From positions 65,082-129,081 of the forward strand of contig CAKONF010000001.1 of NCBI GenBank assembly GCA_934097015.1: 64,000 bases of DNA. Direction: 5' to 3'. Positions within the stretch are counted from its first letter, which is position 1; every line of letters starts with the position of its first letter. A program made the position numbers and the translations under genes. This document shows positions 13,952-53,374 of the stretch, one piece after another. Origin of the DNA: an uncultured Bacilli bacterium. GTDB taxonomy: Bacteria > Bacillota_I > Bacilli_A > RF39 > UBA660. Below the pieces are notes generated by a model that saw only the letters and a program-made list of their open reading frames with translations, was not told the DNA's origin and ran no database searches.

Positions 13952-16513
13952 CTAAGCCTTTTTTTGTTGTTTTTTATTGATTACTAAATAAGTTATAGTA
14001 ATTATTAATGTTGTTATACTTATAGATATACCTATATCTAAATTATTAGGAATATATTTTAATTCTATGTTGTTTTCTCCTTTTTTTAAATCAAATCCTA
14101 ATAGACTATCATTAATTTTATAAGTTTTTATTTCTTTATTATTTGAATATACTTTCCATCCTTTATCGTATGGTATAGATGTATATATTGAAGTATCATT
14201 TTGAAGTGTAATATTTCCTTTTATATTATTTTCTTTGAAATTAGTAATGTTTATTCTATTTGAATTTAGTATGTTATAGGCTTCTATAAATTTATTATTT
14301 TCTATAGTATAAATATCTATTTCTTCATTTAAGTATGTTTTATAAGATACATATATTTCTACATTGTTATCATTAGATGTTGTATTTATTATATATTCTT
14401 CATCATATGAATTACATTCTTTAAATGTTCTATTTAGTTTTATTTGTATATCATTTATATTGATATTATTTTTATAATATATTTTATCATTTATTATAAT
14501 ATAATTAATTTGTGTATTGTTTGAATATAGATATATATTATCAAATTCATTTATATAATTATATTTAACTATTGTTTCTTTTTTATTTTGTGTAATTATT
14601 TCTCTGTTGTCAAGTGTTAATCTATGAAATACATTTTCTATATTTGTTCCATAATTTATAAAATTATTTTGATATTCTATTGGATTTATAAAATTATTAG
14701 TCCATTTTTTTATTGATTTATTTACTCCAAACATTAATCCTGTTGTGTAATTAAATTTATATGTTAAAGTATTATTTTTGTTTAATTCTAAATTATATCT
14801 TTTATTATCATTGTTTTTTCCAATCGTATATTTTATATCAAACATTAAATCGTATACTGGTGTATTTTGTTTATAATAATAACTATTGATTCTATTACCT
14901 GGTTGTCCTAAATCATTATTTAATTCTGCTAGACTATTATATGCCATTGATGTAAATGTACTTTGTCCGTAATAGTTATACCATGCTCCATCATTAAGAG
15001 TTAGTATTGTGTTTTTTTCAGTTCTATAAAACAATTCATTATCTTTTTCTTTGATTTCACTTATACTTTCATGTACGTTATTGTATGTTGAATAAAATTC
15101 ATCAATGTATTGTAAAATATCCCAATTATGATTTACTGATATTACACATTCGATAGAGCATACAATTATAAATAAAAGTGTACTTAAATTTTTAAATCTT
15201 GGATAGAAATGATATAGGGTATAGATTAAGAAATAAGTTGATATTAATAAATAATTTATTGTTATCATATTTGATGTTATATTGTTATATTTTGTTAAGT
15301 ATACAAATGTTATGAATAATAGACAAATAACATATGTTATTAAAATTTTTGTAAAAGATATTTCTTTTATGTTTTTTAATGAATAAGCACATGTTAATAT
15401 AAGTATGAAACTATATATAAATGAATATCTATATGGCAAATCATTTGGTACATGGAATGCGTGCCATATATAATCTAAAGGAGCAACATAAAATGAAGTT
15501 AATAAGAATATAAGAATTAATGTGTATACTATTTTTCTTTTAATATTGATTTTTTTATTAAGTATGAATAATAAATATAAGCCTATAGATAGTATTCCGC
15601 ATGATACGTTTGGAGCATTTGATATGTCTGATGCAAATACTGTTTTTGTTATTCCAGTTAAATGATTTTTAAAAAAGTTAATTATAGTGAATGCATAATA
15701 TTGTTCTGTTGGAATAGTTCCCATAGTTGCATTTGTACTTTTTAAAGATTCATACATTGGTATTAGTTCAAATGCTAATAGTAAACCAGCAATTAAAGAA
15801 CATATTGCAAATTTTAAACATTTTTTTGATATTTTTTTAACGTTAAATTTTTTTGTTTTAATTATTAAATATGATAAGAAATATATACATGAATAAATAC
15901 ATATCATATATCCTATAAAATAATTTGTGAATAATATTAATATTAAAGATAGTGTATATAAAACTCCATTATCTTTATTAATTATATTTTCTATACCTAA
16001 CGTTATTAAAGGAAGAATGTACATTCCATCTAACCACATTATATTCCAATAGTATGCTGTAAAATATGCTGAGTATCCGTAAAGAAGTGATATTCCTATC
16101 ATATATAATTTGTTTGTATTAAATTTTTTATGTATATAATATGAGCATGTGATACAAGATAATATACTTTTTAAACCTATTATTATTGAATAAGACATTA
16201 TAATATTTCTTCTTTTGAATAAAAACATTATTATATTTAGTGGTGATGATAAGTAATTAAAAAAGTTTCTGAAATACGGTAGTCCTAATCCTGTATTAAA
16301 ACTATATATAATGTTTGTACCTTTTTTTATTCTGTCGTATAGTTCTGCTAGCATGGGTCCGTATTGATGAAAAAAATCTATTGTTAGAAGTGAATTTCTA
16401 CCAAATGGTGCAACATCTTGTAGTATATATATTGTAGATATTATTGATACTCCTAATATAAATACTACTATTAAATATCCATATTTTTTTAAAAAGTTTT
16501 TCATAAGTACCAC
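13952..16513 (-). CDS. YfhO-family polytopic membrane protein (putative glycosyltransferase)
   Basis: 853 aa with many TM segments. The N-terminal 'DVAPFGRNSLLTIDFFHQYGPML' matches the YfhO N-terminal signature. It has a large C-terminal extracytoplasmic domain. Confidence 0.6.
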   Translation of the reverse strand: MVLMKNFLKKYGYLIVVFILGVSIISTIYILQDVAPFGRNSLLTIDFFHQYGPMLAELYDRIKKGTNIIYSFNTGLGLPYFRNFFNYLSSPLNIIMFLFKRRNIIMSYSIIIGLKSILSCITCSYYIHKKFNTNKLYMIGISLLYGYSAYFTAYYWNIMWLDGMYILPLITLGIENIINKDNGVLYTLSLILILFTNYFIGYMICIYSCIYFLSYLIIKTKKFNVKKISKKCLKFAICSLIAGLLLAFELIPMYESLKSTNATMGTIPTEQYYAFTIINFFKNHLTGITKTVFASDISNAPNVSCGILSIGLYLLFILNKKINIKRKIVYTLILIFLLTSFYVAPLDYIWHAFHVPNDLPYRYSFIYSFILILTCAYSLKNIKEISFTKILITYVICLLFITFVYLTKYNNITSNMITINYLLISTYFLIYTLYHFYPRFKNLSTLLFIIVCSIECVISVNHNWDILQYIDEFYSTYNNVHESISEIKEKDNELFYRTEKNTILTLNDGAWYNYYGQSTFTSMAYNSLAELNNDLGQPGNRINSYYYKQNTPVYDLMFDIKYTIGKNNDNKRYNLELNKNNTLTYKFNYTTGLMFGVNKSIKKWTNNFINPIEYQNNFINYGTNIENVFHRLTLDNREIITQNKKETIVKYNYINEFDNIYLYSNNTQINYIIINDKIYYKNNININDIQIKLNRTFKECNSYDEEYIINTTSNDNNVEIYVSYKTYLNEEIDIYTIENNKFIEAYNILNSNRINITNFKENNIKGNITLQNDTSIYTSIPYDKGWKVYSNNKEIKTYKINDSLLGFDLKKGENNIELKYIPNNLDIGISISITTLIITITYLVINKKQQKKA

Positions 16514-16718
16514 CTAATTAAAATTATATAATATAGGTTATTTTTATTCAATTTTTTATTTGTCTTTTTTTGTTTTATTTTGATAAGTTTTTAGAAGTTT
16601 TGTCGAATGACTTTATTTTATTATTAGATTGTATTAGTATAACTAATCGAACGTCTGGGTTGATGTCTACCTTACGAACTGAATTATAAAAGAGTAAAAG
16701 TAGTAAGGTGGTGATATT

Positions 16719-16793
16719 ATGTTCAAAAATTTAGAAAAATTTATGAATAGAATCATTGTTATTTTAATATTACTCTTCTTGGATAAAGAATAA
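16719..16793 (+). CDS. 24-aa hydrophobic peptide MFKNLEKFMNRIIVILILLFLDKE (candidate type I toxin)
   Basis: ATG start with SD 'aaggtggtg'. It has a charged N-terminus, a 10-13-residue aliphatic core and an acidic tail. Confidence 0.6.
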   Translation: MFKNLEKFMNRIIVILILLFLDKE

Positions 16794-16802
16794 TTAAATT
16801 AA

Positions 16803-16885
16803 AATAAAAACATCCGCCACTCAGTTAGGACGGATGCCTGCAACCAAGGTAGACATCTAACCTACAGGGGGTAGACGTTCTACTT
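16803..16885 (-). ncRNA. Predicted antisense sRNA of module B
   Basis: Minus-strand -35 TTGACA (plus-strand tgtcaa, 16915-16920) and -10 TATTAT (plus-strand ataata, 16892-16897) with a 17-nt spacer. The terminator hairpin (plus-strand 16811-16836) is followed on the minus strand by a T-run. Confidence 0.5.
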
Positions 16886-17098
16886 GATTAAATAATAGCA
16901 TTTGATATAGTGATTGTCAAATGTTTTTTTTATGTAGATTTTACTAAAAATGTAGAAATATGATAAGTTTTTGGAAGTTTTGTCGAAAATCTTTAATTTA
17001 TTATTAGATTGTATTAGTATAACAAATCGAACGTCTGGGTTGATGTCTACCTTACTAACTGAATTATTAGAGAGTAAAAGTAGTAAGGTGGTGATAAT

Positions 17099-17173
17099 GT
17101 GTTCAAAAATTTAGAAAAATTTATGAATAGAATCATTGTTATTTTAATATTACTCTTCTTAGATAAAGAATAA
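17099..17173 (+). CDS. 24-aa peptide (V/M)FKNLEKFMNRIIVILILLFLDKE with a GTG start
   Basis: Identical to the copy B peptide except for the start codon. An upstream out-of-frame ATG gives MCSKI* only. Confidence 0.45.
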   Translation: MFKNLEKFMNRIIVILILLFLDKE

Positions 17174-17182
17174 TTAAATTAA

Positions 17183-17267
17183 AATAAAAACATCCGCCAC
17201 TCAGTTAGGACGGATGTCTTCCAACACAAAGGTAGACATCTAACCTACAGGGGTAGACGTTCTACTT
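17183..17267 (-). ncRNA. Predicted antisense sRNA of module C
   Basis: Minus-strand TTGACA (plus-strand 17298-17303) with a TATTAT-like -10. The hairpin 17191-17216 is followed on the minus strand by a T-run. Confidence 0.45.
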
Positions 17268-17322
17268 TATTAAATAATAACATTTATTATATATAGTTGT
17301 CAATTGATAATGGAGGGTTTTG

Positions 17323-17654
17323 ATGAAAAATAAATTGCAGATAATAAATAAAATGTATCATGATGAAAGTATTAGAACTTATATTGTATTAGAAGATAAA
17401 AAGTATTATATAAGTCTATATGATGTTGTATTAAAATTAACTAATTATAAAAATATACAATCTTTTATAGTACGTTTAAAAAAAAATTATTATTAGAACA
17501 AAATAAAGTTATTTATAATTTTAAAACTTTTAATTTAGTAAAAAAGGGAGAGGGTAGGTATAAAAGAACTGAAATGATAGATTTTGATAGTTTAATTATT
17601 CTATTAGATTATATTCCTGTTAGAAATAAAGAATATGTTAAAGATTTTTTATAG
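17323..17654 (+). pseudogene. Bro-N/KilA-N-like small ORF split by a frameshift at an A9 tract
   Basis: ORF 17323-17496 (MKNKLQIINKMYHDESIRTYIVLEDKKYYISLYDVVLKLTNYKNIQSFIVRLKKNYY*) continues in the -1 frame after A9 (17478-17486) as LLEQNKVIYNFKTFNLVKKGEGRYKRTEMIDFDSLIILLDYIPVRNKEYVKDFL*. RBS is 'ggaggg'. Confidence 0.4.
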
Positions 17655-17817
17655 ATTAAATAACTCTATTTTAAACGTGTTAATTTAATTGATAAGGGTT
17701 TAATATATAACGATACAAATAAATTCATTAAAAATATTTATTTAGATGGTAGAATATTTGTACTTGTAAAACGTTAACATTTATTATAAAATTATTTTAG
17801 AGTAGAAGGTGTTTCTA

Positions 17818-18069
17818 GTGGATAATAAAGTTAATGTTGATTTGATAGTTCCTAGTATTGGAGAGAGATATAATATATTTATTCCAGTAAATAAAACTAT
17901 TGGGGAAGTTATTGTTATTCTTAATAATACAATAAATAATATGACAGGTTATTTTCCTATAGTAAATAATTTATCTATTTTGGATGTTGTTAGTAATAAA
18001 ATATATGGAAGTAATGTAGATGTAAAAAGTGCTGGTATAAAAAATGGTGCTATACTTGCATTAATATAG
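17818..18069 (+). CDS. esaB: YukD/EsaB-like ubiquitin-fold T7SS protein
   Basis: 83 aa starting 'MDNKVNVDLIVPSIGERYNIFIPVNKTIGEVI'. It lies immediately upstream of essC. The start is taken at GTG 17818 with SD 'gaaggtg'. Confidence 0.7.
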   Translation: MDNKVNVDLIVPSIGERYNIFIPVNKTIGEVIVILNNTINNMTGYFPIVNNLSILDVVSNKIYGSNVDVKSAGIKNGAILALI

Positions 18070-18076
18070 GTGTAAT

Positions 18077-21000
18077 ATGAGGTTAGTATTAGAAAGTAAA
18101 GACCAATTAACTATTACTAAATTACCTAACACTGTATCCGGTAATTATTGGATAATTGATGATAATAATAAAAATCTACTTAATGTTAGTGTAGAAAATG
18201 ATAGTTGGGTATTGAATAGCAATACAGAGATAAAAATTAGCAACAACATTAATAATGATAAATTAAGTAATATTAATTATTTAGAAAAAGTTATTTTAGA
18301 AGAAAATAAATATTATTATATTACTAATATAATGACTAAAGAAAATTATATATTATATACTTTACCTAGTTATGAATATTATGAAAACTTTGTTATAGAT
18401 TATAATCAAAACAATAATATAATTATTGGTAATGGTAAAAATAGTGATATAGGAATTAATAATAGTTTGTTTAATGATAAAGATATTAGTATAGAATATG
18501 ATAAAAAAAGCAACAATATATTATTTAAAAACTTAAATGAAAAAAGTAATAGTTTTATAAATTATAGAAAATGTAATAGTTGTTATTTAAGTAATGGAGA
18601 TATTATATTTAAAAATGGTATATTTATTTATTATTTTGGTAGTTTATTGTTAGTTAGTAATAATAAACATGATTTAGTATTTAATTCTTTAAGAGTTAAT
18701 AAAAGATTAATTAAAGAAAATGAAAAAAAGGATTACAGTAATTTAATAGATAAAGATGTTAAAGTATTTGATAAAAATAGTATGTTTCAAAGACCTCCAA
18801 GGTTTAAAAGGAAGATAGAACATAAAGAATTTAATATTGATAGTCCTACACAAAAAGAAAATGACGAAGAAACTCCATTAATATTTACAATAGCTCCTAT
18901 GATGACTATGGGAATGATGAGTTTAGTAACTGGAATGAGTAGTTTAGGAAAAGTATTAAATGGTGAAAGTACAGTAAAACAAGAATTAGGTTCACTTTTA
19001 ATGTGTGGATGTATGTTGCTTTCTATGATAGTGTTTCCGTTAATTCAAAAGTTTTATGATAAAATGAAAAAAGCGCAAAAAGAAAGAAAACGAAGAAGAA
19101 AATATAAAAAGTATATTAGTAGTAAACACGATGAAATATTTAAAGAAATAAATTTTCAAAAACAAGTTATGATAGAAGATAATTTACCTATAGATAAAGT
19201 AAGAGATATAATTTTATCTAGAAGTAGAAATTTATGGGATAGAAAATTAGAACATGAAGATTTTTTAAATTTAAGACTTGGTATTGGAAATACTAAACCC
19301 GATATAGAAATTAAATATCCTGAAAGCCATTTTACTTTAGAAGAAGATGATTTAAAAGATATAATAGATGATTTAGTGAATGAAAGTAAAGATATTACTG
19401 ATGTCCCTATTACACTTAATTTTAGAACTAATAATAAGACTGGTGTAATAGGTGATAATAATAATTTATATAATATGTTAGATAATTTAATGCTACAGAT
19501 AATGGCTTATCATGGATATGATATGTTAAGAATTTGTATATTGACTAATAATAATGTTTATTGGGATAAGTATAGAAACTTACCTTATTTGTGGAATAAT
19601 GATAAAAGTATAAGATATTATGCTAGTAATAAAGAAGATATTAATAAAGTATGTAGTTATTTAATGGAAGAATATAATTATAGAAAAGAAGTATATGAAG
19701 ATGGTACTGTATTTAATCCATATTATTTAATTATTACTGATGATATTAATAGTGTTAAGAATAATGTATTTGTTAGTGAAATATTAAAGAATCGTAGTAA
19801 TTTGGGTTATAGTTTGCTTATGTGCGTTAATAAATTAGATTTATTGCCTAATGAATGTAATATGTTTGTTAATTTAAGTAATGAAGTATGTGGTATATTT
19901 ACTAATCAAATGACTATGGATAATCAAATTGCTTTTAAGAAAGATGTTGTTAATTTTTCTTTAAGAAATGCAATTGCTAATATTAGTAATATTCCTATGG
20001 ATATAAATAATGGTAAATTTGTTTTGCCTAAAAAATATGGTTTCTTAGAAATGTATGATGTTGGAAATGTGAATCAACTTAATATTGTTAATCGTTGGAA
20101 GAATAATGATGTTATCAATAGTTTGAGTTGTCCTGTTGGTATTGATGAACAGGGTGAATTATTCAATATTGATTTACATGAAAAGGCTCATGGACCTCAT
20201 GGATTAGTTGCAGGTATGACTGGTAGTGGTAAGTCTGAATGGATTATTACTTATATATTATCTATGGCAATTAATTATAGTCCTGAAGAAGTTCAATTTG
20301 TACTTATAGATTATAAGGGTGGAGGACTTGCGTTAACATTTGATAATAGAGAAAATAATATTAAATTGCCACATGTAGTTGGTACTATTACGAACTTAGA
20401 TATTGTTGAGATTAAAAGAAGTTTAGCCAGTATAGAGAGTGAACTTAAAAGACGTCAAGCAATGTTTAAGAAAGCTCGTGAAATACTAAATGAAAGTAGT
20501 ATGGATATATATAAATATCAAGATTATTATAGACAAGGTAAACTTAGTGATCCAATGAGTCATTTATTTATAATAAGTGATGAGTTTGCTGAATTAAAAG
20601 TACAACAACCTGAGTTTATGGATAAACTTATTAGTACAGCAAGAATTGGACGTAGTTTAGGAGTGCATTTGATACTTGCTACTCAGAAACCGAGTGGGGT
20701 TGTAGATGACCAAATATGGTCTAACTCTAAATTTAGAGTATGTTTAAAAGTACAAGATAAGAGTGATTCAAATGATATGATTAAATGTCCTGATGCTGCT
20801 ATGATAAAAGAAACTGGTAGATTTTTCTTACAAGTTGGATATAATGAATTATTTATGAAAGGACAAAGTGCTTATGCTGGAATGCCATATTATGAAAGTG
20901 ATAAAAAAATTACCGTTGTTAATTCTAGTATAGATTTTGTTGATGAAATAGGTAGTATTATAAAACGCGGTGATGTTAAAAAGAATAATACTCAATATGT

Positions 21001-22672
21001 TCATAAAGGTGAAGAGTTGCCAAATGTTTTAAATTATATTATAGATACTTTTAAAAATGAAAATTTAAATGTTAAACCATTATGGTTAAGTAGTATACCT
21101 AAAGTAATATATGTAGATAAATTAAAAGAAAAATATAATTATGTAAAAGAAGATTATGTTTTAAATCCTATTATTGGAGAATATGATTATCCTTCTAAAC
21201 AAACACAAGGTTTATTAACATTAGAATTAAGTAAAGAAGGAAATACAATAATATATGGTTCTAGTGGAAGTGGTAAAGAAAATTTAATTACGACAATACT
21301 TTATTCATTGATTAGCAATTACAGTGTATATGAAGTAAATAGTTATATATTAGATTTTGGGAGTGAAATATTAAATAATTTTGAAGCTGCACCACATGTC
21401 GGAGATATTATACATAGTGGTGATGATGAGAAAATAGAAAACTTATTTAAATTTATAAATAATGAGATTAAATTTAGACGTAAAAAGTTTATGAATAGCA
21501 ATGGAAATTATTTAGATTATGTAAAAAATAGTGAAGAAAAAATACCAAATATTGTTGTTATAATAAATTTATTTGAAGTGTTTAGTGATTTATATGATAA
21601 ATATATTGATAATATAGTTGAACTAACTAGAGATTCCTCTAAATATGGTATATTTTTCATTTTAACTAGTGCTAGTAGCACTGGAATTAGAACTAAGATA
21701 ACACAAAATTTTAAAAATTTGATTACTTTACAATTGAATGATGAAATGGATTATAGGAATGTATTGGGAAATACTAACGGTGTTGTTCCTAGCAAATACG
21801 TTGGTAGGGGATTAGTCAAGTTGGATAAAGTTGTAGAGTTTCAAACTGCATATTGTTATCCTAAAGAAAATTTATATGATAATGTAAAAATGCTATGTGT
21901 TAAATTATTTATGGATATGAAGATGAAAGCAAGAGCGATACCTGTATTACCTAATGTTGTAGAATTTAAAGATATTAATAAAAATGAAATAAACATAAAT
22001 AACATACCTATTGGTATAGTTAAAAAAACTTTAGATATTGCTAGTATTAATTTGAAAGATAACATTAGTTATTTAATGAGTAGTAGAAATTTTGATGATA
22101 TGTTAACTTTTATTGATAAATTATTATTTATATTAAATAGTTCTAGTAGTTTTAATACATTTGTATTTGATAGTAAGTTTGTTTATGAGGAAAATAAATT
22201 TAATAATATAACATATTTGAATAATGGATATAGTGATGTGTTAAAACAAATAAGTGAGTATGCAGATAACGTAGATGATGTATTAAAACAAAATAGTAAT
22301 AATAGGAAAAGTATTAGTAATGTAAAAGAAGTTTTAGTTGTATTATTAGGATTAGATAAGTTTGTTAAGTCTTTAAATGACGATGATAAAAAACTATTTG
22401 AAAATATTATTAATAAAACTAAAGATAGTATAAAAATACATTTTGTGTTTGTTGATGGTAGTAATAGTTTAAAGAAGAACGAATATGAATCTTGGTATAA
22501 AGATATAGTTGATTCTAGCAGTGGTTTATGGATTGGTGATGGTTTTGCAGAACAATATAGTATTAAACCTACAAAGATTCAACAATCGTATTATGAATTA
22601 ATTGGTAATAGGTTTGGATATATAGTTTCTAATGGAAACGTAGATTATATTAAAATTATAGAGAAAGAGTAA
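18077..22672 (+). CDS. essC: EssC, the T7SS FtsK/SpoIIIE-family ATPase
   Basis: 1531 aa with an N-terminal FHA-like region and two TM helices near residues 265-325. It has multiple P-loop domains ('GLVAGMTGSGKSE', 'IIYGSSGSGKEN') with Walker B 'FIISDEF'. Confidence 0.9.
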   Translation: MRLVLESKDQLTITKLPNTVSGNYWIIDDNNKNLLNVSVENDSWVLNSNTEIKISNNINNDKLSNINYLEKVILEENKYYYITNIMTKENYILYTLPSYEYYENFVIDYNQNNNIIIGNGKNSDIGINNSLFNDKDISIEYDKKSNNILFKNLNEKSNSFINYRKCNSCYLSNGDIIFKNGIFIYYFGSLLLVSNNKHDLVFNSLRVNKRLIKENEKKDYSNLIDKDVKVFDKNSMFQRPPRFKRKIEHKEFNIDSPTQKENDEETPLIFTIAPMMTMGMMSLVTGMSSLGKVLNGESTVKQELGSLLMCGCMLLSMIVFPLIQKFYDKMKKAQKERKRRRKYKKYISSKHDEIFKEINFQKQVMIEDNLPIDKVRDIILSRSRNLWDRKLEHEDFLNLRLGIGNTKPDIEIKYPESHFTLEEDDLKDIIDDLVNESKDITDVPITLNFRTNNKTGVIGDNNNLYNMLDNLMLQIMAYHGYDMLRICILTNNNVYWDKYRNLPYLWNNDKSIRYYASNKEDINKVCSYLMEEYNYRKEVYEDGTVFNPYYLIITDDINSVKNNVFVSEILKNRSNLGYSLLMCVNKLDLLPNECNMFVNLSNEVCGIFTNQMTMDNQIAFKKDVVNFSLRNAIANISNIPMDINNGKFVLPKKYGFLEMYDVGNVNQLNIVNRWKNNDVINSLSCPVGIDEQGELFNIDLHEKAHGPHGLVAGMTGSGKSEWIITYILSMAINYSPEEVQFVLIDYKGGGLALTFDNRENNIKLPHVVGTITNLDIVEIKRSLASIESELKRRQAMFKKAREILNESSMDIYKYQDYYRQGKLSDPMSHLFIISDEFAELKVQQPEFMDKLISTARIGRSLGVHLILATQKPSGVVDDQIWSNSKFRVCLKVQDKSDSNDMIKCPDAAMIKETGRFFLQVGYNELFMKGQSAYAGMPYYESDKKITVVNSSIDFVDEIGSIIKRGDVKKNNTQYVHKGEELPNVLNYIIDTFKNENLNVKPLWLSSIPKVIYVDKLKEKYNYVKEDYVLNPIIGEYDYPSKQTQGLLTLELSKEGNTIIYGSSGSGKENLITTILYSLISNYSVYEVNSYILDFGSEILNNFEAAPHVGDIIHSGDDEKIENLFKFINNEIKFRRKKFMNSNGNYLDYVKNSEEKIPNIVVIINLFEVFSDLYDKYIDNIVELTRDSSKYGIFFILTSASSTGIRTKITQNFKNLITLQLNDEMDYRNVLGNTNGVVPSKYVGRGLVKLDKVVEFQTAYCYPKENLYDNVKMLCVKLFMDMKMKARAIPVLPNVVEFKDINKNEININNIPIGIVKKTLDIASINLKDNISYLMSSRNFDDMLTFIDKLLFILNSSSSFNTFVFDSKFVYEENKFNNITYLNNGYSDVLKQISEYADNVDDVLKQNSNNRKSISNVKEVLVVLLGLDKFVKSLNDDDKKLFENIINKTKDSIKIHFVFVDGSNSLKKNEYESWYKDIVDSSSGLWIGDGFAEQYSIKPTKIQQSYYELIGNRFGYIVSNGNVDYIKIIEKE

Positions 22673-22717
22673 AATAATGAAAAATGTCAATTATTGTCAA
22701 AAATTACCAAAATAATG

Positions 22718-22746
22718 TTGCATTGGTGAAAAAAATATTTTATACT
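22718..22746 (+). promoter_or_regulatory. Sigma-A promoter for the WXG gene
   Basis: TTGCAT (22718-22723), a 17-nt spacer, then TATACT (22741-22746). It gives an about 180-nt leader. Confidence 0.55.
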
Positions 22747-22874
22747 TTAGTTAGAGTAGTGAGTACTCTAAAAGACAATTATTATTTATGAAAAAATTAG
22801 AGATTATATATAACTAATCTCTTCTCTGGTGAGAAACAAGAGTTTACGAACAAACGTATGCTAAAAAAATCGTC

Positions 22875-22884
22875 GGGGGGGGGG
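22875..22884 (+). repeat. G10 homopolymer tract in the 5' leader of the WXG gene
   Basis: 'cgtcGGGGGGGGGGttatat'. A G10 run is extremely improbable in a roughly 22% GC genome. It sits about 50 nt upstream of the start codon. Confidence 0.9.
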
Positions 22885-22933
22885 TTATATAGAAAATATA
22901 TAATTTTTTTGTTTGGAGAAGGGAGTGTTTTTC

Positions 22934-23542
22934 ATGAATATTAATGTTAGAGATTTGGATTTAGGTTATAGTCAATGTGAGGAATTAAATACTTTATCTA
23001 AGACTAGTGGAACTAATTTAATTAGTAATTTGTCAACTGATATAAACAATTTAAAGGCTCACTGGAAAGGCACTGATGCTACAGCACATATAAACAATTT
23101 AATTAAAGTTTATGATGCTTTGGTTGCCTTGGTGACTGATGCTAAGGTTATTACTTGCAATTCAGGTAGTGCAATAAGCACTATTCAAGAAGTTAGAAGA
23201 AGTAATGGTGGTTCTGGAAATATTGGAGGTCCTTTAGATGGCAATGCGCCTGATGCAAGTAGTTTACCTACTATTGAATCAACAAGCGAATACTTTTGTG
23301 ATCCATCAGCTAGAATAGATTATACGTTATTAGAACAAATTTGTTCTGATTATTCTAGCTTTATTAATAATTTTAGAAGTCAAAAAGATGCTTTAATGTC
23401 AAATTGGACTGCAGGTGCCAACAGAGAAAATGCTGTTAAAGTATTTGATGAATTTGATTCGAATTCTGAGACATATAATAAATATTTAACAGATGCTAAA
23501 GAAAATTTAGGAATTGCTGTAAGTAATTTATCACAATTATAA
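22934..23542 (+). CDS. Tandem (double) WXG100-like T7SS substrate
   Basis: 202 aa from the ATG with SD 'ggagaagggag'. The first half has 'LKAHWKGTDATAH', a W-x-G motif in a helix-turn-helix. The second half has 'LMSNWTAGANRENA', a W-x-x-G variant. A Gly/Ser/Pro linker (RRSNGGSGNIGGPLDGNAPDASS) separates the halves. Confidence 0.6.
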   Translation: MNINVRDLDLGYSQCEELNTLSKTSGTNLISNLSTDINNLKAHWKGTDATAHINNLIKVYDALVALVTDAKVITCNSGSAISTIQEVRRSNGGSGNIGGPLDGNAPDASSLPTIESTSEYFCDPSARIDYTLLEQICSDYSSFINNFRSQKDALMSNWTAGANRENAVKVFDEFDSNSETYNKYLTDAKENLGIAVSNLSQL

Positions 23543-23545
23543 GAG

Positions 23546-23577
23546 TAAGAGTGGCGTAATTGTGTCGCTCTTTTATT
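23546..23577 (+). terminator. Possible attenuator or terminator hairpin after the WXG gene
   Basis: 'aagagtggcgtaattgtgtcgctcttttatt' is an imperfect stem followed by a T-rich run. Confidence 0.35.
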
Positions 23578-23593
23578 AGAGAGGAAAATTGAA

Positions 23594-23890
23594 ATGAATC
23601 AAAAATATGAAAAGTACTTACCAATTGGTAGTGTTGTTTTATTGAAAAATGCAAAAAAAAGAATAATGATTACTGGATTTTGTATAAAAAGTAAGGAATC
23701 TGATTTAGATAAAGTTTTTGATTATATTGGCTGTCTATATCCAGAAGGAATAATAGATTCTGAAAAAAATTTGTTATTTGATCATAATCAAATTGAAACT
23801 ATTTATGCAATAGGATATAGCGATGATGAAGAAAGAGAGTTCAAAAAGAAATTACAAGAAGTTTTAAAAGAGGAAAATAATAATGTCTAA
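23594..23890 (+). CDS. DUF4176-family protein (LXG-associated)
   Basis: 'YLPIGSVVLLKNAKKRIMITGF...FDYIGCLYPEGI' matches the DUF4176 pattern (LP.GSVV.LK.......G......DY.GC.YPEG) from memory. It overlaps the next ORF by 8 nt. Confidence 0.55.
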   Translation: MNQKYEKYLPIGSVVLLKNAKKRIMITGFCIKSKESDLDKVFDYIGCLYPEGIIDSEKNLLFDHNQIETIYAIGYSDDEEREFKKKLQEVLKEENNNV

Positions 23891-24281
23891 ATCTTCTAAC
23901 AATAAAAATACTGAATCTCAATATTGGCGTCAAAAAGAAAGAGAATATCGTGAATTAAAAAAATCATATGAGAAATACAGAGACAAATTATCTTCTTTAA
24001 AAGAAGTTTTGTCTCCCTTAAGTATACATTTAGTTAATTCAAAAAAGTATTTTGAAGATGGTGGATATATTGAAGATAATGGTGAAACATTAGATAGAGG
24101 AAAATTATTAGAAATGAAGAATAGTTTAGAAAAGATTATTGAAAGATTATCAAGTGTTATTTCTGACACAAATTCTAAAATATCTTCTTTACAAGTATTA
24201 ATGAACGATTGTAATAAAAAAGCAAATCAAGCTGTTATAAACGCTTCTAGCAATTGTTATTTTGCTGTTAAACCTAAGTAA
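23883..24281 (+). CDS. Small all-helical protein, candidate Lap-type LXG-targeting partner
   Basis: 132 aa, coiled-coil rich and translationally coupled. Its position between DUF4176 and the LXG toxin is typical of DUF3130/DUF3958/DUF5082-like partners. Confidence 0.4.
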   Translation: MSKSSNNKNTESQYWRQKEREYRELKKSYEKYRDKLSSLKEVLSPLSIHLVNSKKYFEDGGYIEDNGETLDRGKLLEMKNSLEKIIERLSSVISDTNSKISSLQVLMNDCNKKANQAVINASSNCYFAVKPK

Positions 24282-24298
24282 AAGTATGGGTGGTGTAT

Positions 24299-26122
24299 AT
24301 GAAAATTGATGGAATTTTATTTTATAAAGCACAATTAGAAATAAAAAAAGTGTTTGATGTAATTGATGGTAATAAAAATAAAATAGATGATTTGATAAAT
24401 TCTGCTCCTCCTAAAGGTTATCCTTGGAAATCCAAAGTTAATGAGATATGTAATGATTTAGTATCTTTTAATTTAGATGTTTGTAATCTTTCAAAAGCGA
24501 TAGAGAATGCTAGATTAAATATTATTAGTTTACAAGGTAGTGAAAAATTTATAGAAGAGTATGGTAGTATGATTACTAATATATCATTTGGAAATGAGTT
24601 TGGCAATAATGTTTTTGGATTTAGTGGAAGTATTAATGAATCTATAATAAAACTTTCAGATGATGATTATTATGAATATTTGTATTCTTATTTAAAAAGT
24701 ATGGATGTAAAGTTGTTAAATGAAGATCAAAAAAATATTTTAGATCAACTTGAAGCTTCTAAAAAAGGTTTTAAGTCGGTTGAAGAAATGAAAAAATGGG
24801 AGCAAGCAAAGGTGGAATACGAACAAATGAATCTATTTCAACAGGCATTATCTGATACTGGTACTTTTCTGTGTTCAACTGCCTGTGGTATAATTTCTGT
24901 TGCTGAAGAAATTGTTGATGGTTATATTATGTTAGAAAGTTCAACTTTATTATATACTTCCCCTATTGGATGGGGAATTAACGCGATAAGTTTTTTTCAA
25001 GAAAAAAGTGGAATTTCTAAAGATAGAACTTTAAAATCTAAATATCAAGATGTAGTTCAGGATATTATTAATTATAATTTTTCAGATAATTTATATGATT
25101 CAATAGTAGATAGTACTGGATTAAATATATATTCAGCTTATGGCACTTGTCATACTGCTGGATTAACTTTGGGTAATATTGTAGCAGAGGTTGGGATACA
25201 ATTTATACCTGGGGGGAATATATCTTTATTTGCATTACACGCTTTAAAGGCTGCTGGTAAAACATCTCAGAAGGCAATAAAAGAGGTGAAAAAAGCTGAA
25301 AAATTGTATTTGAATGGTGATGTTTCTGCTGAAGAATATAATGATATTATGAGAAAAAAAAGTTTTGGTCATATTGCTTTAACTAGTGGGGCGAATGCAG
25401 TTTTAGAAGGTGGCATATCAACAATATTGTATGGTAAATTTGGATTCGCAAAAGAAACAGGTGGAAAAGCTGTAAATTTTGTTGCAAAAAAAATTCAACC
25501 TTTAATAAAATCTAAAAAGGCTTCAGAAGTTGTCGTTAAATCTGCTATATCTTTTAGTAAGGAATTTGCGAAGGAAGGTATTTCTAGTGTAGGTTATGGA
25601 AAGAAATATGATTTAAAAGAAACGATGAAAAGTGGTTTAACTAGTGTAGCCACTACCGTATTTAATGAAACTGTTGTAGCACCATTAACAGATAAGGTTA
25701 TTAACAAAAAGGGAATAAATTCAAAAAATACTTTTTATAAACAAGAAAATTCTAAATTAAAACATATTAATAGTAATGTAGAAGAAAATATTAAAACTAC
25801 TCAAGAAAAATTATCATTAATTGAAACTAAACGTGCTGCACTATTTGAAAGTGGCTGTGAAGGTAAAGAGAGTATTAAGGGAGCATTTGGTAATTATGAA
25901 CCTCCTAAAACTGATCATGTTGCTGCTTATGATGATGTAATTAAAAAATATACAGGAAAAATAACTATTCAACAGAACATTATTAGTCAAAATAATGATG
26001 CAATTGGAAGAAATTCATTAAATGTATTTGAAAAATTGATTAATAATGGTGCTATTACTAAAATATCAAAAAAAATTGCTTCTAAGTTTGAAAAAGATAT
26101 TATTGCTAATGCTATGAAGTAG
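24299..26122 (+). CDS. LXG-type T7SS polymorphic toxin with a C-terminal domain of unknown type
   Basis: 608 aa with a helical N-terminal about 200 aa ('IISLQGSEKF'). It has a glycine-zipper segment ('AGLTLGNIVAEVGIQFIPGG...ALTSGANAVLEGGISTILYG') like that preceding the toxin module in YeeF/TelE-type LXG proteins. The C-terminal about 200 aa has no recognisable catalytic motif. Confidence 0.55.
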   Translation: MKIDGILFYKAQLEIKKVFDVIDGNKNKIDDLINSAPPKGYPWKSKVNEICNDLVSFNLDVCNLSKAIENARLNIISLQGSEKFIEEYGSMITNISFGNEFGNNVFGFSGSINESIIKLSDDDYYEYLYSYLKSMDVKLLNEDQKNILDQLEASKKGFKSVEEMKKWEQAKVEYEQMNLFQQALSDTGTFLCSTACGIISVAEEIVDGYIMLESSTLLYTSPIGWGINAISFFQEKSGISKDRTLKSKYQDVVQDIINYNFSDNLYDSIVDSTGLNIYSAYGTCHTAGLTLGNIVAEVGIQFIPGGNISLFALHALKAAGKTSQKAIKEVKKAEKLYLNGDVSAEEYNDIMRKKSFGHIALTSGANAVLEGGISTILYGKFGFAKETGGKAVNFVAKKIQPLIKSKKASEVVVKSAISFSKEFAKEGISSVGYGKKYDLKETMKSGLTSVATTVFNETVVAPLTDKVINKKGINSKNTFYKQENSKLKHINSNVEENIKTTQEKLSLIETKRAALFESGCEGKESIKGAFGNYEPPKTDHVAAYDDVIKKYTGKITIQQNIISQNNDAIGRNSLNVFEKLINNGAITKISKKIASKFEKDIIANAMK

Positions 26123-26156
26123 TTAAAAAAATGGTATAATATAAAAGGAGGATACT

Positions 26157-26558
26157 ATGAATCAAGATAAAGAGAGATTTTTTTCTGGTATACAAAAATA
26201 TGTAGATGATGGATTATTAAGAACTATCTATTCTGATGATAACTTGGCGGTTGTTTGTGTGGGGGATTTATTTTACTTAATCTGTCCTTATTTTACTTTA
26301 GATAATGGTGATTACTTTGGTATGTCTATAAAAAAAGATAATATTCATATTGCAATTGAAGATCCTGAATTCTTTTTTAAATCTATTAAAGAAATGAATT
26401 CATCTTTATTCCTTAGTAAAATGTTTAATTTTTCTTATAAATATTATGATGTAGTAAAAGGTATAGTAGATGAATGTCATAAAAAAGGAGATACTGTCGA
26501 TTTAGATTATGAATTTGAAGAAAATTTAAAACAATTATATGTTAACAAAACAAAGTAA
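26157..26558 (+). CDS. Candidate cognate immunity protein (soluble, 133 aa)
   Basis: It lies immediately downstream of the toxin ORF with RBS 'aaaggaggatactATG'. There is no signal peptide or TM segment. Confidence 0.4.
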   Translation: MNQDKERFFSGIQKYVDDGLLRTIYSDDNLAVVCVGDLFYLICPYFTLDNGDYFGMSIKKDNIHIAIEDPEFFFKSIKEMNSSLFLSKMFNFSYKYYDVVKGIVDECHKKGDTVDLDYEFEENLKQLYVNKTK

Positions 26559-26575
26559 GGTGTGTAAAATAATTT

Positions 26576-26707
26576 ATGGAAAAGAAAAAGATTATAATTA
26601 ATGGAATTGAAGAAGAAATATATGTTGTTAGTGATAAAGAAAAGGAAGATAATTTGGATTTAATAAATTTAGAAGATACTGTTGATTTATCTGAGGTAAT
26701 TAATCAT
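26576..26707 (+). CDS. 43-aa acidic small protein overlapping the start of the next gene
   Basis: MEKKKIIINGIEEEIYVVSDKEKEDNLDLINLEDTVDLSEVINHE. Its stop overlaps the ATG at 26706 (ATGAATGA). Confidence 0.35.
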
Positions 26708-28034
26708 GAATGAGTTTTTAGAAAGAATAAAGATAATTGCTAAATATAATCCCGGTTTATTAAATGATGATTTTTATGATATAGTTTATACTGAATTAAT
26801 AGGTTTTAATTTAGGACATAATCAAGAAAAATTTAAAAATATAAGTAATATGTTTAGTAAATGGATTGATAGAAATAATGTTAATGAAAGATTACGTACT
26901 TTTATAGATAATAGATATCCTTATTTTTGTCAATTTGTTAACCGTGGTGCTAAACCTATAAATAAAGATGCAATTAAATTATATATTCCACTTGATGAAG
27001 AGCATTTATATGAGGGTGTTAATAAATTATTTACTTTTATTACTAATATGGGTATTGAACATAATTCTAAAGTTGGTAGTGAAATTAGAAACGATAATGT
27101 TGTTATTAGAGTTAGTAATATTAAGGATGCTGAAACAATTATTAATTATGTTAAAAATGATAAATATTTAAGTGAAGGTTTACTTAATGTTAATCCATTT
27201 ACAATTAATTTAAATGGTGTAGGAATTGCTATGGATGGTATGCGTTCATATAATATAGAATTATCTAAATCTATTGCTAATTTTACTAAAATATTAAGTG
27301 AAAAAAATAGATTGGAAGATTTAAATGTAGATACTTTTAATGAATATTTAAATAATGTGAGAAGTAATGATAGAGATTTAAATATGATTAATGATATTCA
27401 AAAAAGAGTGACTGCAGGTCAAAGTTTTGATATGAGTTATGTTAAAGATATATTTTCTAAATATAATGGAAATGTTAATAATATAAATAAAGAAGGTATT
27501 TTAAAAGAGGCAATAATTGAAACATATAATAAATATCAAAGTATAGATCATGTTATTCATGCAATTGCTAGGTTTAGATATAATGGTGATGCTTGTGGAT
27601 TTACTAGAAATAATGGAGCAAGAGCTAGATTAGAAATGGGTTTAAGTTTAGAAGATGTTAATAATATTTTAAATAATTATCCGTATTATGGTGATAATAA
27701 GATTGAAGCATATATTAATAATTGTATAGGTTTAAATAATACAAAAGATGATAAATATCAATATTTAGTAAATGCTTACAAAGATACATATAATAAATAT
27801 GGTGATAGACAAGCTGATCTTGCTTTAAGAAAATATATTCTTAATAAAGAAGTAAAATACATTACTAATAGTAATGGCGCTAGAACTAATTTAGAAATGT
27901 ATTTAAAAGATAGTGATATAATGCAAACTTTAAAAAATGGAATGAATATAGATAGTTATTGTTCTTTAGAAGATATATGTGAAACTTTTATAAATGAAAT
28001 GCGACAATTGAATATGAGTCGTGGTAGTTATTAA
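26706..28034 (+). CDS. Hypothetical 442-aa protein with internal 'NGAR(A/T)xLEM' repeats, associated with the T7SS island
   Basis: 'GFTRNNGARARLEMGLSLEDVNNIL' and 'YITNSNGARTNLEMYLKDSDIMQTL' are repeated about 95 aa apart. There is no signal peptide or TM. Confidence 0.5.
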   Translation: MNEFLERIKIIAKYNPGLLNDDFYDIVYTELIGFNLGHNQEKFKNISNMFSKWIDRNNVNERLRTFIDNRYPYFCQFVNRGAKPINKDAIKLYIPLDEEHLYEGVNKLFTFITNMGIEHNSKVGSEIRNDNVVIRVSNIKDAETIINYVKNDKYLSEGLLNVNPFTINLNGVGIAMDGMRSYNIELSKSIANFTKILSEKNRLEDLNVDTFNEYLNNVRSNDRDLNMINDIQKRVTAGQSFDMSYVKDIFSKYNGNVNNINKEGILKEAIIETYNKYQSIDHVIHAIARFRYNGDACGFTRNNGARARLEMGLSLEDVNNILNNYPYYGDNKIEAYINNCIGLNNTKDDKYQYLVNAYKDTYNKYGDRQADLALRKYILNKEVKYITNSNGARTNLEMYLKDSDIMQTLKNGMNIDSYCSLEDICETFINEMRQLNMSRGSY

Positions 28035-28062
28035 ATTCTCAATTTTGTTGAGAATTTTTTTG
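28035..28062 (+). terminator. Intrinsic terminator
   Basis: aattctcaa-ttttg-ttgagaatt followed by TTTTTTT. Confidence 0.65.
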
Positions 28063-28077
28063 TGTTTTTGAAAAAGT

Positions 28078-28162
28078 CGTTAGAAAAATGTGTAATTTAG
28101 AACGAAAAATCGTTAGAAAAACGTGATTAGAATTTGACAAAATTCATATTTTTTTGTATTAT
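28078..28162 (+). promoter_or_regulatory. ackA promoter with two upstream 15-bp direct repeats
   Basis: CGTTAGAAAAATGTG (28078-28092) and CGTTAGAAAAACGTG (28111-28125). TTGACA (28134-28139) is followed by a 17-nt spacer and TATTAT (28157-28162). Confidence 0.5.
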
Positions 28163-28191
28163 ATAGGGCAATTACTTAGGAGGGTTTGGTT

Positions 28192-29421
28192 ATGGATAAT
28201 AAGTATTTAGTAATTAATGGTGGTAGTAGTTCATTAAAGTTTTCTTTATATGATAATAATAAAGAAGAAATAGTTAATGGATATATACAAAAAATTGGTT
28301 TAGAAGATAGTTTTTACACATTAAAATATGATGGTAAAAAAGTTGAAAAAAATTGTAAAATTATGAATCATATTGATGCTTGTAATGTTATGATTAATGA
28401 GTTGTTAGATAATGATTTTATTTTTGATATTAATCAAATTGCTGGTGTAGGTCATAGAGTTTTACATGGTGCTGAATTTTATAATGAATCTGTTATAATA
28501 GATGATGAAGTAATAAACAATTTAAAGTCTTTAGTAGATTTAGGTGGACTTCATTTACCTGGGGAAATATCTGTTATAGAATGTATGAAAAATATTCTTC
28601 CTGATGTTAAACAAGTTGCTGTATTTGATACTGCATTTCATCAAACTATGAAGAATGATAGATATATTTATCCAATTAAATATGAATATTATGAAAAATA
28701 TGGCGTACGTAAATATGGTTTTCATGGTACTAGCTATAATTATATTAATAATGTCATGAAAGATAAATTGGGTGTTAATAATCCGAATTTAATAGTTTGT
28801 CACATAGGTAGCGGAGCAAGCATGTGTGCAATAAAAAATGGTGAGTGCGTAGATACAACTATGGGTCTTACTCCATTAGATGGATTAATGATGGGAACCC
28901 GTTCTGGTTCAATTGATCCTGCTATTATAGATTATTTAGTTAATAAAACAGGTAAAAATGTTAGTACTATTACTGATGAATTAAATAAAGAATCTGGTAT
29001 GGTTGGATTGTGTGGTAAGAGTGATTTAAGAGATGTTGATATTTTAATTAATAATGGTGATAAAAAAGCTATACTTGCTATGAAAATTTATATTAATTCA
29101 ATTATTAAATATATTGCAGAATATTATTTCTTATTAAAGGGAGATGTTGATGCGATTGTATTTACTGCTGGTGTTGGAGAAAATAATAGTTATGTTAGAC
29201 GTGAAGTTGTTAATTATATTTCTGATGTTATTGGCAGTAAATTAGATGATGATATGAATAATCAAATTGCTGGTTTTAAAGAAATAAAAGAAGGTATAAT
29301 AACAACTAGTGATTCTAAATGTCCAATATATGTTGTTCCAACAGATGAAGAAAGTATGATATTAACTGATACTATTAGATTATGTGAAACTAATAAAAAA
29401 TTAGTAAAAAAAAGAAATTAA
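28192..29421 (+). CDS. ackA: Acetate kinase
   Basis: 'KYLVINGGSSSLKFSLYD' and 'VGHRVLHGAEFYNESVIIDDEV' are the acetate/propionate kinase signatures. Confidence 0.9.
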   Translation: MDNKYLVINGGSSSLKFSLYDNNKEEIVNGYIQKIGLEDSFYTLKYDGKKVEKNCKIMNHIDACNVMINELLDNDFIFDINQIAGVGHRVLHGAEFYNESVIIDDEVINNLKSLVDLGGLHLPGEISVIECMKNILPDVKQVAVFDTAFHQTMKNDRYIYPIKYEYYEKYGVRKYGFHGTSYNYINNVMKDKLGVNNPNLIVCHIGSGASMCAIKNGECVDTTMGLTPLDGLMMGTRSGSIDPAIIDYLVNKTGKNVSTITDELNKESGMVGLCGKSDLRDVDILINNGDKKAILAMKIYINSIIKYIAEYYFLLKGDVDAIVFTAGVGENNSYVRREVVNYISDVIGSKLDDDMNNQIAGFKEIKEGIITTSDSKCPIYVVPTDEESMILTDTIRLCETNKKLVKKRN

Positions 29422-53357: not shown

Positions 53358-53374
53358 TTTTTTTTTTTTTTTTT
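53358..53374 (+). repeat. T17 homopolymer in the intergenic region upstream of the ORF6N gene
   Basis: 'gtgtttcTTTTTTTTTTTTTTTTTacaaa'. Confidence 0.9.

Follow-up and report, generated by a model that had tools for sequence, protein, structure and literature searches.

A length-polymorphic G tract in a predicted leader hairpin upstream of a WXG100-like gene in an uncultured Bacilli bacterium

The DNA considered here is a 64-kb stretch of contig CAKONF010000001.1 from an uncultured Bacilli bacterium, referred to throughout as the window, and the feature under study is a run of ten G residues (G10) in the untranslated leader of a gene for a WXG100-like protein of 202 amino acids (aa). The gene is part of a type VII secretion system (T7SS) locus, as the gene upstream of the leader encodes EssC (TIGR03928, 994 bits) and a DUF4176 gene lies downstream of the WXG100-like gene. 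The GC content of the window is 23.5%, compared with the approximately 22% given in a first-pass annotation of this DNA, and the 64 kb contain 10,318 G residues. The GC skew is strongly positive and uniform across the window (approximately +0.35 to +0.55), and the open reading frames (ORFs) are almost all located on the + strand. The features to which the first-pass annotation drew attention, namely the G10 tract at 22875-22884, two short hairpins, and a pair of promoter hexamers separated by 17 nt, were all recovered. Its description of the leader as long and structured also holds, given a predicted folding energy of -50 kcal/mol (z = -5.8) over 199 nt. The annotation missed the C/U-rich partner of the G tract, as well as the discrete 122-nt insertion that contains both tracts. 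The positions of the features are collected in Table 1.

Table 1. Positions in the window of the leader features and of the gene that follows them.
Feature	Position	Strand	Description
Three hexamers TGTCAA/TGTCAA/TACCAA	22685-22710	+	Exact 10-nt phasing; end 7 nt before the -35 hexamer
Putative sigma-A promoter TTGCAT-17-TATACT	22718-22746	+	-35 at 22718-22723, -10 at 22741-22746
SL1, stem-loop AGAGUA-GUGAG-UACUCU	22753-22769	+	At the predicted 5' end of the transcript; -5.0 kcal/mol
5' strand of helix P1 (GACAAUUAUUAUUUAUGAAAAA)	22774-22795	+	Complementary to the start-codon region
Nine-codon upstream ORF (uORF), MKKLEIIYN-stop	22788-22817	+	Without a Shine-Dalgarno (SD) sequence; ends 1 nt before the C/U tract
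Imperfect-palindrome module, 122 nt (GAAAAAAUUA ... UAAUUUUUUUG)	22790-22911	+	One long hairpin predicted
C/U tract UCUCUUCUCU (= TCTCTTCTCT)	22818-22827	+	5' strand of the C/U:G helix
Variable apical region	22828-22874	+	Small stem ACG/CGU; A6-7 run
G10 tract	22875-22884	+	3' strand of the C/U:G helix; length-polymorphic, G9-G11
3' arm UUAUAUAGAAAAUAUAUAAUUUUUUUG	22885-22911	+	Pairs back to the 5' arm; U7 with the 5' A6
SD region GGAGAAGGGAG	22915-22925	+	Strong SD, 8 nt before the ATG at 22934; unpaired in the minimum free energy (MFE) fold
3' strand of helix P1	22928-22948	+	Includes the AUG (22934-22936); from predicted folds and alignment
WXG100-like gene, 202 aa	22934-23542	+	Leads a cassette with DUF4176, 132-aa, and 610-aa genes that lies downstream of essC

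The G10 tract is the sole run of G or C longer than 6 nt in the 64 kb, the next G run being 6 nt and the longest C run 5 nt. Approximately 5e-4 runs of at least 10 G are expected in the window under either independent or first-order models, indicating that the tract is not a chance feature. It is located 128 nt downstream of the -10 hexamer and 49 nt upstream of the ATG, and it lies in no ORF and outside the spacer between the -35 and -10 hexamers. In the MFE, module-only, consensus, and per-lineage predicted folds, the G tract pairs with the C/U tract. Only three 10-mers of C and T that include 4 or more C occur on the window's + strand, the C/U tract being one of them, compared with 73 on the - strand; the extreme rarity of C-rich tracts on the + strand follows from the strong GC skew and the nearly exclusive placement of ORFs there. 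The expected number of such C/U 10-mers within 100 nt of the G tract is approximately 0.005. In the related locus L043, the C/U tract reads UCCUUUCUC, which is composed of pyrimidines throughout and differs by C/U swaps only.

Both tracts lie within an imperfect palindrome that is predicted to form a long, near-continuous duplex of approximately 35-40 bp. The module alone folds at -32.6 kcal/mol (z = -5.7) as sense RNA and at -17.4 kcal/mol (z = -2.9) as antisense RNA, in which the C run is left unpaired. The same difference is observed for all nine variants of the module described below (-26 to -34 kcal/mol for the sense strand versus -10 to -19 kcal/mol for the antisense strand). The hairpin is specific to the sense RNA because the core helix is made up of G-C and G.U pairs, which argues for a role at the RNA level and against a DNA-level palindrome. 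The second hairpin of the first-pass annotation (AGAGATTA, 22799-22806, with TAATCTCT, 22815-22822) is composed of complementary segments; however, it is only one of several alternative pairings of its 3' half, which the MFE and consensus folds join to the G tract instead. As a structure in its own right (AGAGAUUA/UAAUCUCU, -7.1 kcal/mol, z = -2.2) this hairpin cannot compete with the long hairpin, and its L043 counterpart is degraded.

The module was compared with its counterparts upstream of the same gene in 20 further assemblies and in species-level relatives, with individual loci denoted by L numbers. The module architecture is present in nine variants from seven lineages, in which the module measures 82-122 nt and the gene shares 79-100% aa identity with that of the window. 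The module is absent from L032, L012, and L006 (at most 75% aa identity) and from the upstream paralog in L030, all of which retain the promoter and SL1. These module-less leaders go directly from '...tatttat' to the SD. The L030 contig contains tandem paralogs of the 202-aa gene (524-1132 and 1501-2109) with the same promoter and SL1, and only the downstream paralog (L030b) carries the module, providing a natural with/without pair. The absence of the module from relatives that share the promoter and SL1 therefore identifies it as a discrete insertion, or as the subject of a deletion elsewhere.

Conservation within the module is distributed unevenly. Among the carriers, 54-55 positions are identical in a 55-nt 5' block made up of the upstream strand of P1, the 5' arm, and the C/U tract, and identity in the 3' arm extends to 26-30 of its 30 positions. 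The apex between the arms is only approximately 60% identical and contains indels (L026 and L030b match the window at 25-27 of 42-43 positions). The apex of L013 carries a 30-column deletion that leaves a 10-nt loop, and apex size ranges from 4 to 45 nt across lineages. Identity at third codon positions in the adjacent gene falls to as low as 66%. Recent homogenization cannot account for this, because the variable apex lies between invariant arms, and the pattern of identity indicates that the arms of the module are under selection.

The L043 locus (81% identity) is informative as to which fold is retained. Its module is 82 nt in length, with a GAAC-AAUC-GUUC apex containing a 4-nt loop and a 3' arm that has been rewritten, and the long hairpin still forms (-30.7 kcal/mol sense versus -12.8 kcal/mol antisense). 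Since the second hairpin and a local hairpin in the 3' arm (UUAUAUA/UAUAUAA, -2.1 kcal/mol alone) are both lost in L043, the long hairpin is the conserved fold. In an alignment of eight sequences, 98.4% of cells are paired, compared with 46-61% in slid controls. The 4 bp adjoining the C/U:G helix (GGUG/UCGUC) co-vary, and two-sided changes are found at three pairs in total. One of these, pair 89:130 beside the C/U:G helix, is G-C in three sequences and A-U in three, with the switch from G-C to A-U occurring in two lineages.

The presence of a discrete palindrome raises the question of whether the module is a miniature mobile or selfish element, with the G tract as a part of it, that is tolerated in the leader because it folds on itself. 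The Correia elements of Neisseria and the ERIC elements of enterobacteria are imperfect palindromes of approximately 100-150 nt that are co-transcribed, form long hairpins, and alter mRNA processing or stability; these elements are multi-copy and mobile. The module is likewise a discrete indel relative to both the relatives and the paralog on the same contig, and its size and its inverted-repeat ends (AAAAAATTA ... TAATTTTTT) would suit an element of the Correia, ERIC, or RUP type. In contrast to Correia and ERIC, it is single-copy in the sequence examined, is always found at this gene, and forms a good hairpin on the sense strand only, since its palindrome depends on G.U pairs, unlike DNA-level terminal repeats. 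No second copy was identified in the 64-kb window using exact or three-mismatch searches or in 266 kb of loci using regular expressions that allowed four mismatches, and a covariance model (R1) applied to 231 kb returned non-self matches of at most 23 bits (E >= 0.07). Searches of the JGI metagenomes and IMG/VR also yielded no match, although the JGI scans say little as the close lineage seems to be absent from JGI, and no match was found by BLAST against plasmids or phages. Furthermore, the arms are more conserved than the neighboring sequence. Consequently, a mobile origin of this type is considered unlikely.

The G tract itself is uninterrupted in all 18 intact copies (the window and 17 assemblies), and its length is always 9, 10, or 11. 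In the first of two main haplotypes, which has an A7 run 5 nt upstream of the tract, the window, L001/L034, L037, L038, and L039 carry G10. The L036 copy of this haplotype carries G11 and is separated from L037 (G10) by 2 single-nucleotide polymorphisms in 2.5 kb and a TA deletion in the 3' arm. Five samples of the second haplotype, which has an A6 run, carry G11, as do L025, L013, L030b, and L043. The closest comparison is offered by three sibling runs, L026, L027, and L028, which carry G10, G9, and G9, respectively, with no other differences over 2.9-3.6 kb and with 8-10 other A/T runs of 7-9 nt unchanged. Comparison of tract lengths between isolates had been proposed in the first-pass annotation, and the comparison between assemblies bore out the suggestion that the tract is polymorphic. 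Judged from these assemblies, the tract appears to change faster than its surroundings.

Other simple repeats in the leader vary as well. The A run at 22868-22874 is either A7 or A6 (the window versus L002, L033, L041, and L042), and in the two main haplotypes the A7+G10 and A6+G11 combinations cancel, leaving the intergenic length unchanged. L036 combines A7 and G11 with the TA deletion, which lies in the 3'-arm (TA)n repeat. The leader varies mainly through indels in simple repeats.

Poly-G is a known artifact of two-color Illumina chemistry, and the contigs L004, L005, L029, and L044 stop inside or at the tract, which fits either heterogeneity among the reads or a drop in read quality. An origin of the tract in sequencing or assembly would account for such contig ends. 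However, 17 independent assemblies, produced in different studies and with different assemblers, contain the tract internally with matching unique sequence on both sides, and its length is reproducible for each haplotype, making an artifact scarcely credible. Moreover, because the consensus length is reproducible within haplotypes, the length calls are not random noise.

In the first-pass annotation the G tract was likened to slipped-strand phase-variation switches. A classical switch of this kind would turn the gene ON or OFF through the spacing of the -35 and -10 hexamers or through the reading frame, and the observed variation in homopolymer length would be expected of it. In addition, a perfect TATAAT is found at 22899-22904, 14 nt downstream of the tract. 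However, the conserved promoter lies upstream, with the tract outside both its spacer and any ORF, and a -35 hexamer spaced 17 nt from the internal TATAAT would have to lie within the G run. An internal promoter at this site was rejected, as there is no -35-like hexamer and no TG extension, and the site was not reported in the promoter scan. The polymorphism that was suggested therefore stands, while a classical ON/OFF switch is very unlikely.

The predicted folds suggest a different consequence of tract length. In the per-lineage folds, G10 gives a continuous helix of 18 bp (UAA:UUA, C/U:G10, and GGUGA:UCGUC). In the G11 fold, a 3-nt UAA bulge separates helices of 14 bp and 9 bp, and the additional G pairs with the C of AAC, while the G9 fold contains a 5-nt bulge at a cost of approximately 3 kcal/mol (L026 versus L027). 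When the number of G residues was varied on the window leader, the probability of C/U:G pairing was 0.64, 0.97, and 0.35 for G9, G10, and G11, respectively.

The promoter and the 5' end of the leader place the module in a larger architecture. The arrangement TTGCAT-N17-TATAAT/TATACT/TATACA is found at the same place in L013, L012, L006, L025, L026, and both L030 paralogs, and it recurs in relatives down to 71% aa identity; in L043, the corresponding promoter is TTGACT-17-TATTCT. Transcription is predicted to start at approximately 22753. The phased TGTCAA-like hexamers, which have equivalents upstream of the L026 promoter (CGTCAA/TGTCAA/TATCAA), suggest a candidate binding site for an activator or response regulator, in which case the promoter would be activator-dependent. 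The first hairpin of the earlier annotation, SL1, recurs in relatives with its stem kept and its loop variable (L012, L013, L025, L026, both L030 paralogs, L032, and L043), and the L030b copy shows one change from T-A to T.G. By analogy with 5' stem-loops in B. subtilis, SL1 likely protects or stabilizes the 5' end of the mRNA.

The helix P1 consists of 20 pairs, 19 of which are invariant. It is present in every MFE fold whatever the number of G residues, and the probability that the AUG is unpaired is 0.00-0.01. The module-less L006, L030a, and L032 are predicted to sequester the AUG in a comparable hairpin whose loop holds the SD. As the same P1-type fold is found in these relatives, the module sits in the loop of P1. 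The nine-codon uORF lies within the invariant 55-nt block and is probably untranslated; attenuation through a leader peptide encoded by it was rejected, as it lacks an SD. By inspection, the SD region is also complementary to the C/U tract (8 Watson-Crick and 2 G.U pairs). Anti-SD pairing of the C/U tract with GGAGAAGGGA reaches at most 0.2 in the partition function at any number of G residues, leaving it as a minor possibility only.

Based on these data, the explanation that we favor, with about even confidence, is that the G tract forms one strand of a cis-acting leader hairpin and that its length, adjusted by slippage, tunes the WXG100-like gene and its cassette. According to this model, the conserved and probably activator-dependent promoter would produce a transcript that begins near 22753 with the short 5' stem-loop. 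The P1 helix would then pair the upstream strand with the start-codon region, leaving the SD in the loop, and the palindromic module of 82-122 nt would occupy that loop, with a helix between the 9-10-nt C/U tract and G9-11 at its core. Slipped-strand mispairing would change the number of G residues and shift the register of the stem. This shift could act through the accessibility of the translation start, or through processing or stability of the long duplex as a substrate of the RNase III type. The outcome would be a gradual, heritable, post-transcriptional tuning of the T7SS cassette, resembling a rheostat rather than an ON/OFF switch. From the predicted folds we infer that the hairpin forms in vivo and that tract length would affect expression, the direction of the effect being likewise a prediction.

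The main rival to the tuning model, which appears possible but rather less than probable, is that the hairpin has a fixed structural role, serving as an mRNA stabilizer, an RNase III site, or an attenuator. Variation in G number would then be incidental noise, either neutral or mildly deleterious, and the G run would owe its presence solely to the ability of G to pair with C as well as U. The strong conservation of the arms is as expected for a fixed role. RNases that are specific for double-stranded RNA recognize long, nearly continuous duplexes, and the near-continuous duplex predicted here would suit such enzymes. The A6 and U7 flanks of the module are terminator-like, which is relevant to the attenuator form of this rival. 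However, the base of the stem beside the U7 that follows the hairpin consists of A-U pairs only, the local 3'-arm hairpin reaches just -7.2 kcal/mol even with a G.U extension, and the terminator scan of the window reported none in the leader. A terminator formed by the local 3' hairpin and U7 was rejected, being too weak and not conserved in L043. Against a fixed role in any form, an equally strong stem could be built without a slippage-prone homopolymer, yet at least 9 uninterrupted G residues are maintained in seven lineages at 23% GC. In addition, where contigs are nearly identical, changes in the tract make up some of the few differences.

Several observations weigh against the tuning model, and some of these count in favor of the fixed-role rival. 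Tract length is stable within haplotypes (constant in 5/5 and 5/6), so that switching may be slow. The range of lengths is narrow (9-11) and centered on the 10-nt length of the partner tract, which could mean that a fixed stem, and not variability, is selected for. G number has only a small predicted effect on the translation start, with near-degenerate alternatives, as the accessibility of the SD changes only between 0.43 and 0.64 and the AUG is paired at all lengths. The difference between G9 and G10, which comes from Logan assemblies, could be a homopolymer miscall. Most stem pairs are invariant, and the covariation, which amounts to three pairs and L043, is supportive but thin. Finally, the promoter on which the predicted transcription start rests matches the consensus at 8 of 12 positions and fell below the threshold of the consensus scan. 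The first-pass annotation had termed this promoter good, a description that fits its positional conservation in relatives and not its sequence.

Two further possibilities raised in the first-pass annotation, that the leader is a riboswitch-like element or that the G run forms a G-quadruplex-like structure, are each addressed by the arrangement of the leader. A long, strongly structured leader is in keeping with a sensor of this type. However, the Rfam scan returned no match at gathering score in the 64 kb, and within 22600-23000 only a match of 14.8 bits (E = 9.7) over the start codon was reported. Conserved stems that enclose a variable and dispensable apex, which would have to serve as the pocket, are the opposite of the pattern expected for ligand binding. 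With respect to a quadruplex, a single run of 9-11 G, as opposed to four runs of G3, cannot form a three-tier intramolecular structure. The SD, at a distance of 30 nt, supplies the next closest runs of G (GG and GGG), and the competing C/U:G duplex is strongly favored. A sensor or quadruplex is therefore highly improbable here.

Tuning of expression by a homopolymer in a leader has precedent. The espR 5' untranslated region (UTR) in Mycobacterium tuberculosis contains a 7G tract in a G/C hairpin, and single-G indels in this tract recur in isolates (PMC11898584). The +1 G allele lengthens the hairpin and remodels the UTR, relieving UTR-dependent translational repression with no change in mRNA level and thereby tuning ESX-1 (PMC11898584). 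As in espR, the G run studied here lies in a leader hairpin, which in this case is predicted, of a T7SS-associated gene and exists as alleles that differ in length by 1 nt. In contrast to espR, the organism is an uncultured gut member of the Bacilli with 23% GC and a T7SSb (EssC-type) system instead of an actinobacterial ESX system, and the gene encodes a substrate-like WXG100 protein instead of a regulator. The pairing also differs, in that the partner is a C/U tract that forms many G.U pairs, and the hairpin is a discrete insertion of 82-122 nt that is known here from sequence alone.

A second precedent is provided by the tlpB leader of Helicobacter pylori, in which a variable G-repeat (6-16 G) is bound by the C/U-rich loop of the small RNA (sRNA) RepG, resulting in gradual, length-dependent control (PMC8295292). 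Similar to tlpB, the leader studied here contains a G9-11 repeat that is predicted to pair with a 10-nt C/U tract. The C/U partner is located in cis, 47 nt upstream in the same leader, whereas in tlpB the partner is supplied by a trans-acting sRNA through its terminator loop. The Rfam scan of the window identified no sRNA family, and no dedicated search was made for a trans-acting sRNA like RepG. Thus, espR is the closest functional parallel, while tlpB most resembles the present case in its pairing chemistry.

Hypermutable G homopolymers of similar length are also found in the poly-G/C contingency loci of Campylobacter, Neisseria, and Haemophilus, where they yield heritable and reversible variants, and in group B Streptococcus, where a Gn tract inside essC of the T7SSb locus acts by frameshift (PMC9900821). 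The tract described here differs from these contingency loci, which act by frameshift or promoter spacing, in lying within an untranslated leader. Taken together, the element is most likely a 5' UTR homopolymer tuning element, a known class that is found here in a new phylogenetic and genetic setting.

The product of the downstream gene, which the first-pass annotation had described as a T7SS substrate of the WXG type, is twice the usual WXG size. Its halves are weakly similar to each other (26% identity, E = 0.001), and each half has an invariant W..G (W44/G46 and W158/G161). The protein looks like a fused tandem WXG100-like protein, judging from these repeats. Matches to the WXG100 models are confined to the C-terminal half and fall below the curated cut-offs (26.9 versus 27.3 bits for Pfam PF06013 and 24.9 versus 44.85 bits for TIGR03930). 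It is called WXG100-like here because of its essC and DUF4176 context and the two invariant motifs, so that the original assignment draws support from its neighbors and not from the profile scores. Homologs of the protein are found only in uncultured gut metagenome-assembled genomes (approximately 24-30% GC) labeled Bacilli, Erysipelotrichaceae, or Tenericutes.

A distant clade of these homologs (L019-L023, 32-33% identity) has a different leader hairpin (GGATAT...ATATCC) approximately 40-70 nt upstream of the homologous gene, with stem changes from locus to locus that are compatible with pairing. A structured leader may be typical of this gene family in general.

The T7SS locus as a whole (13952-29421) looks minimal. 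It is flanked by yfhO and ackA and consists of an 86-aa ORF, essC, the WXG100-like gene, the DUF4176 gene, and ORFs of 132, 610, 133, and 442 aa. The 86-aa ORF (17809-18070) has no Pfam match and occupies the position of a YukD/EsaB-like gene. Homologs of EsaA, EssA, and EssB were not recognized near the T7SS locus of the window.

Two other features of the window are located outside of the leader. A tandem direct repeat of approximately 380 bp (16581-16846 and 16961-17226; 94% identical) contains in each copy a good SD and a 24-aa hydrophobic ORF (MFKNLEKFMNRIIVILILLFLDKE), with the ORFs located at 16719-16793 and from the GTG at 17099. These ORFs are flanked by long-range complementary segments (GAACGTCTGGG..GATGTCTACCTT upstream and AAGGTAGACATC..GTAGACGTTC downstream) and by a hairpin that contains GC. 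To judge from these sequence features, the arrangement is like that of type I toxin-antitoxin loci, and no Rfam match was found for the repeats. The longest homopolymer in the window is an intergenic T17 run at 53358-53374 that directly follows a hairpin (GGGATACATT...AATGTGTTTC), which together are most simply read as a candidate intrinsic terminator with a very long T tract.

Effector cassettes of T7SSb systems mediate contact-dependent competition between Firmicutes, and their regulation in gut commensals is largely unknown, above all in uncultured, AT-rich Bacilli with reduced genomes. The leader described here offers a clean case in which this regulation could be studied, as it has an obvious stem partner, natural G9, G10, and G11 alleles, and controls that lack the module in a paralog and in sister lineages. 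If the length variation is noise, the module would be an unusual but otherwise ordinary leader hairpin. As a more tentative extension of the tuning model, the module may be a self-contained 'rheostat cassette', a palindromic RNA element that brings with it both a hypermutable G tract and the C/U tract to match, and that entered, as one unit, the loop of a helix sequestering the start codon. It would place a T7SS effector operon under heritable, graded, and reversible control after transcription, for example by altering how a double-strand-specific RNase separates the leader from the ribosome-binding site. This would represent a cis version of the RepG/tlpB logic and the first case of a T7SSb substrate cassette controlled in this manner. 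If the tuning model is correct, a clonal population of this organism could hold sub-populations that differ in effector output without the need for a dedicated sensor, as M. tuberculosis does for ESX-1 via espR.

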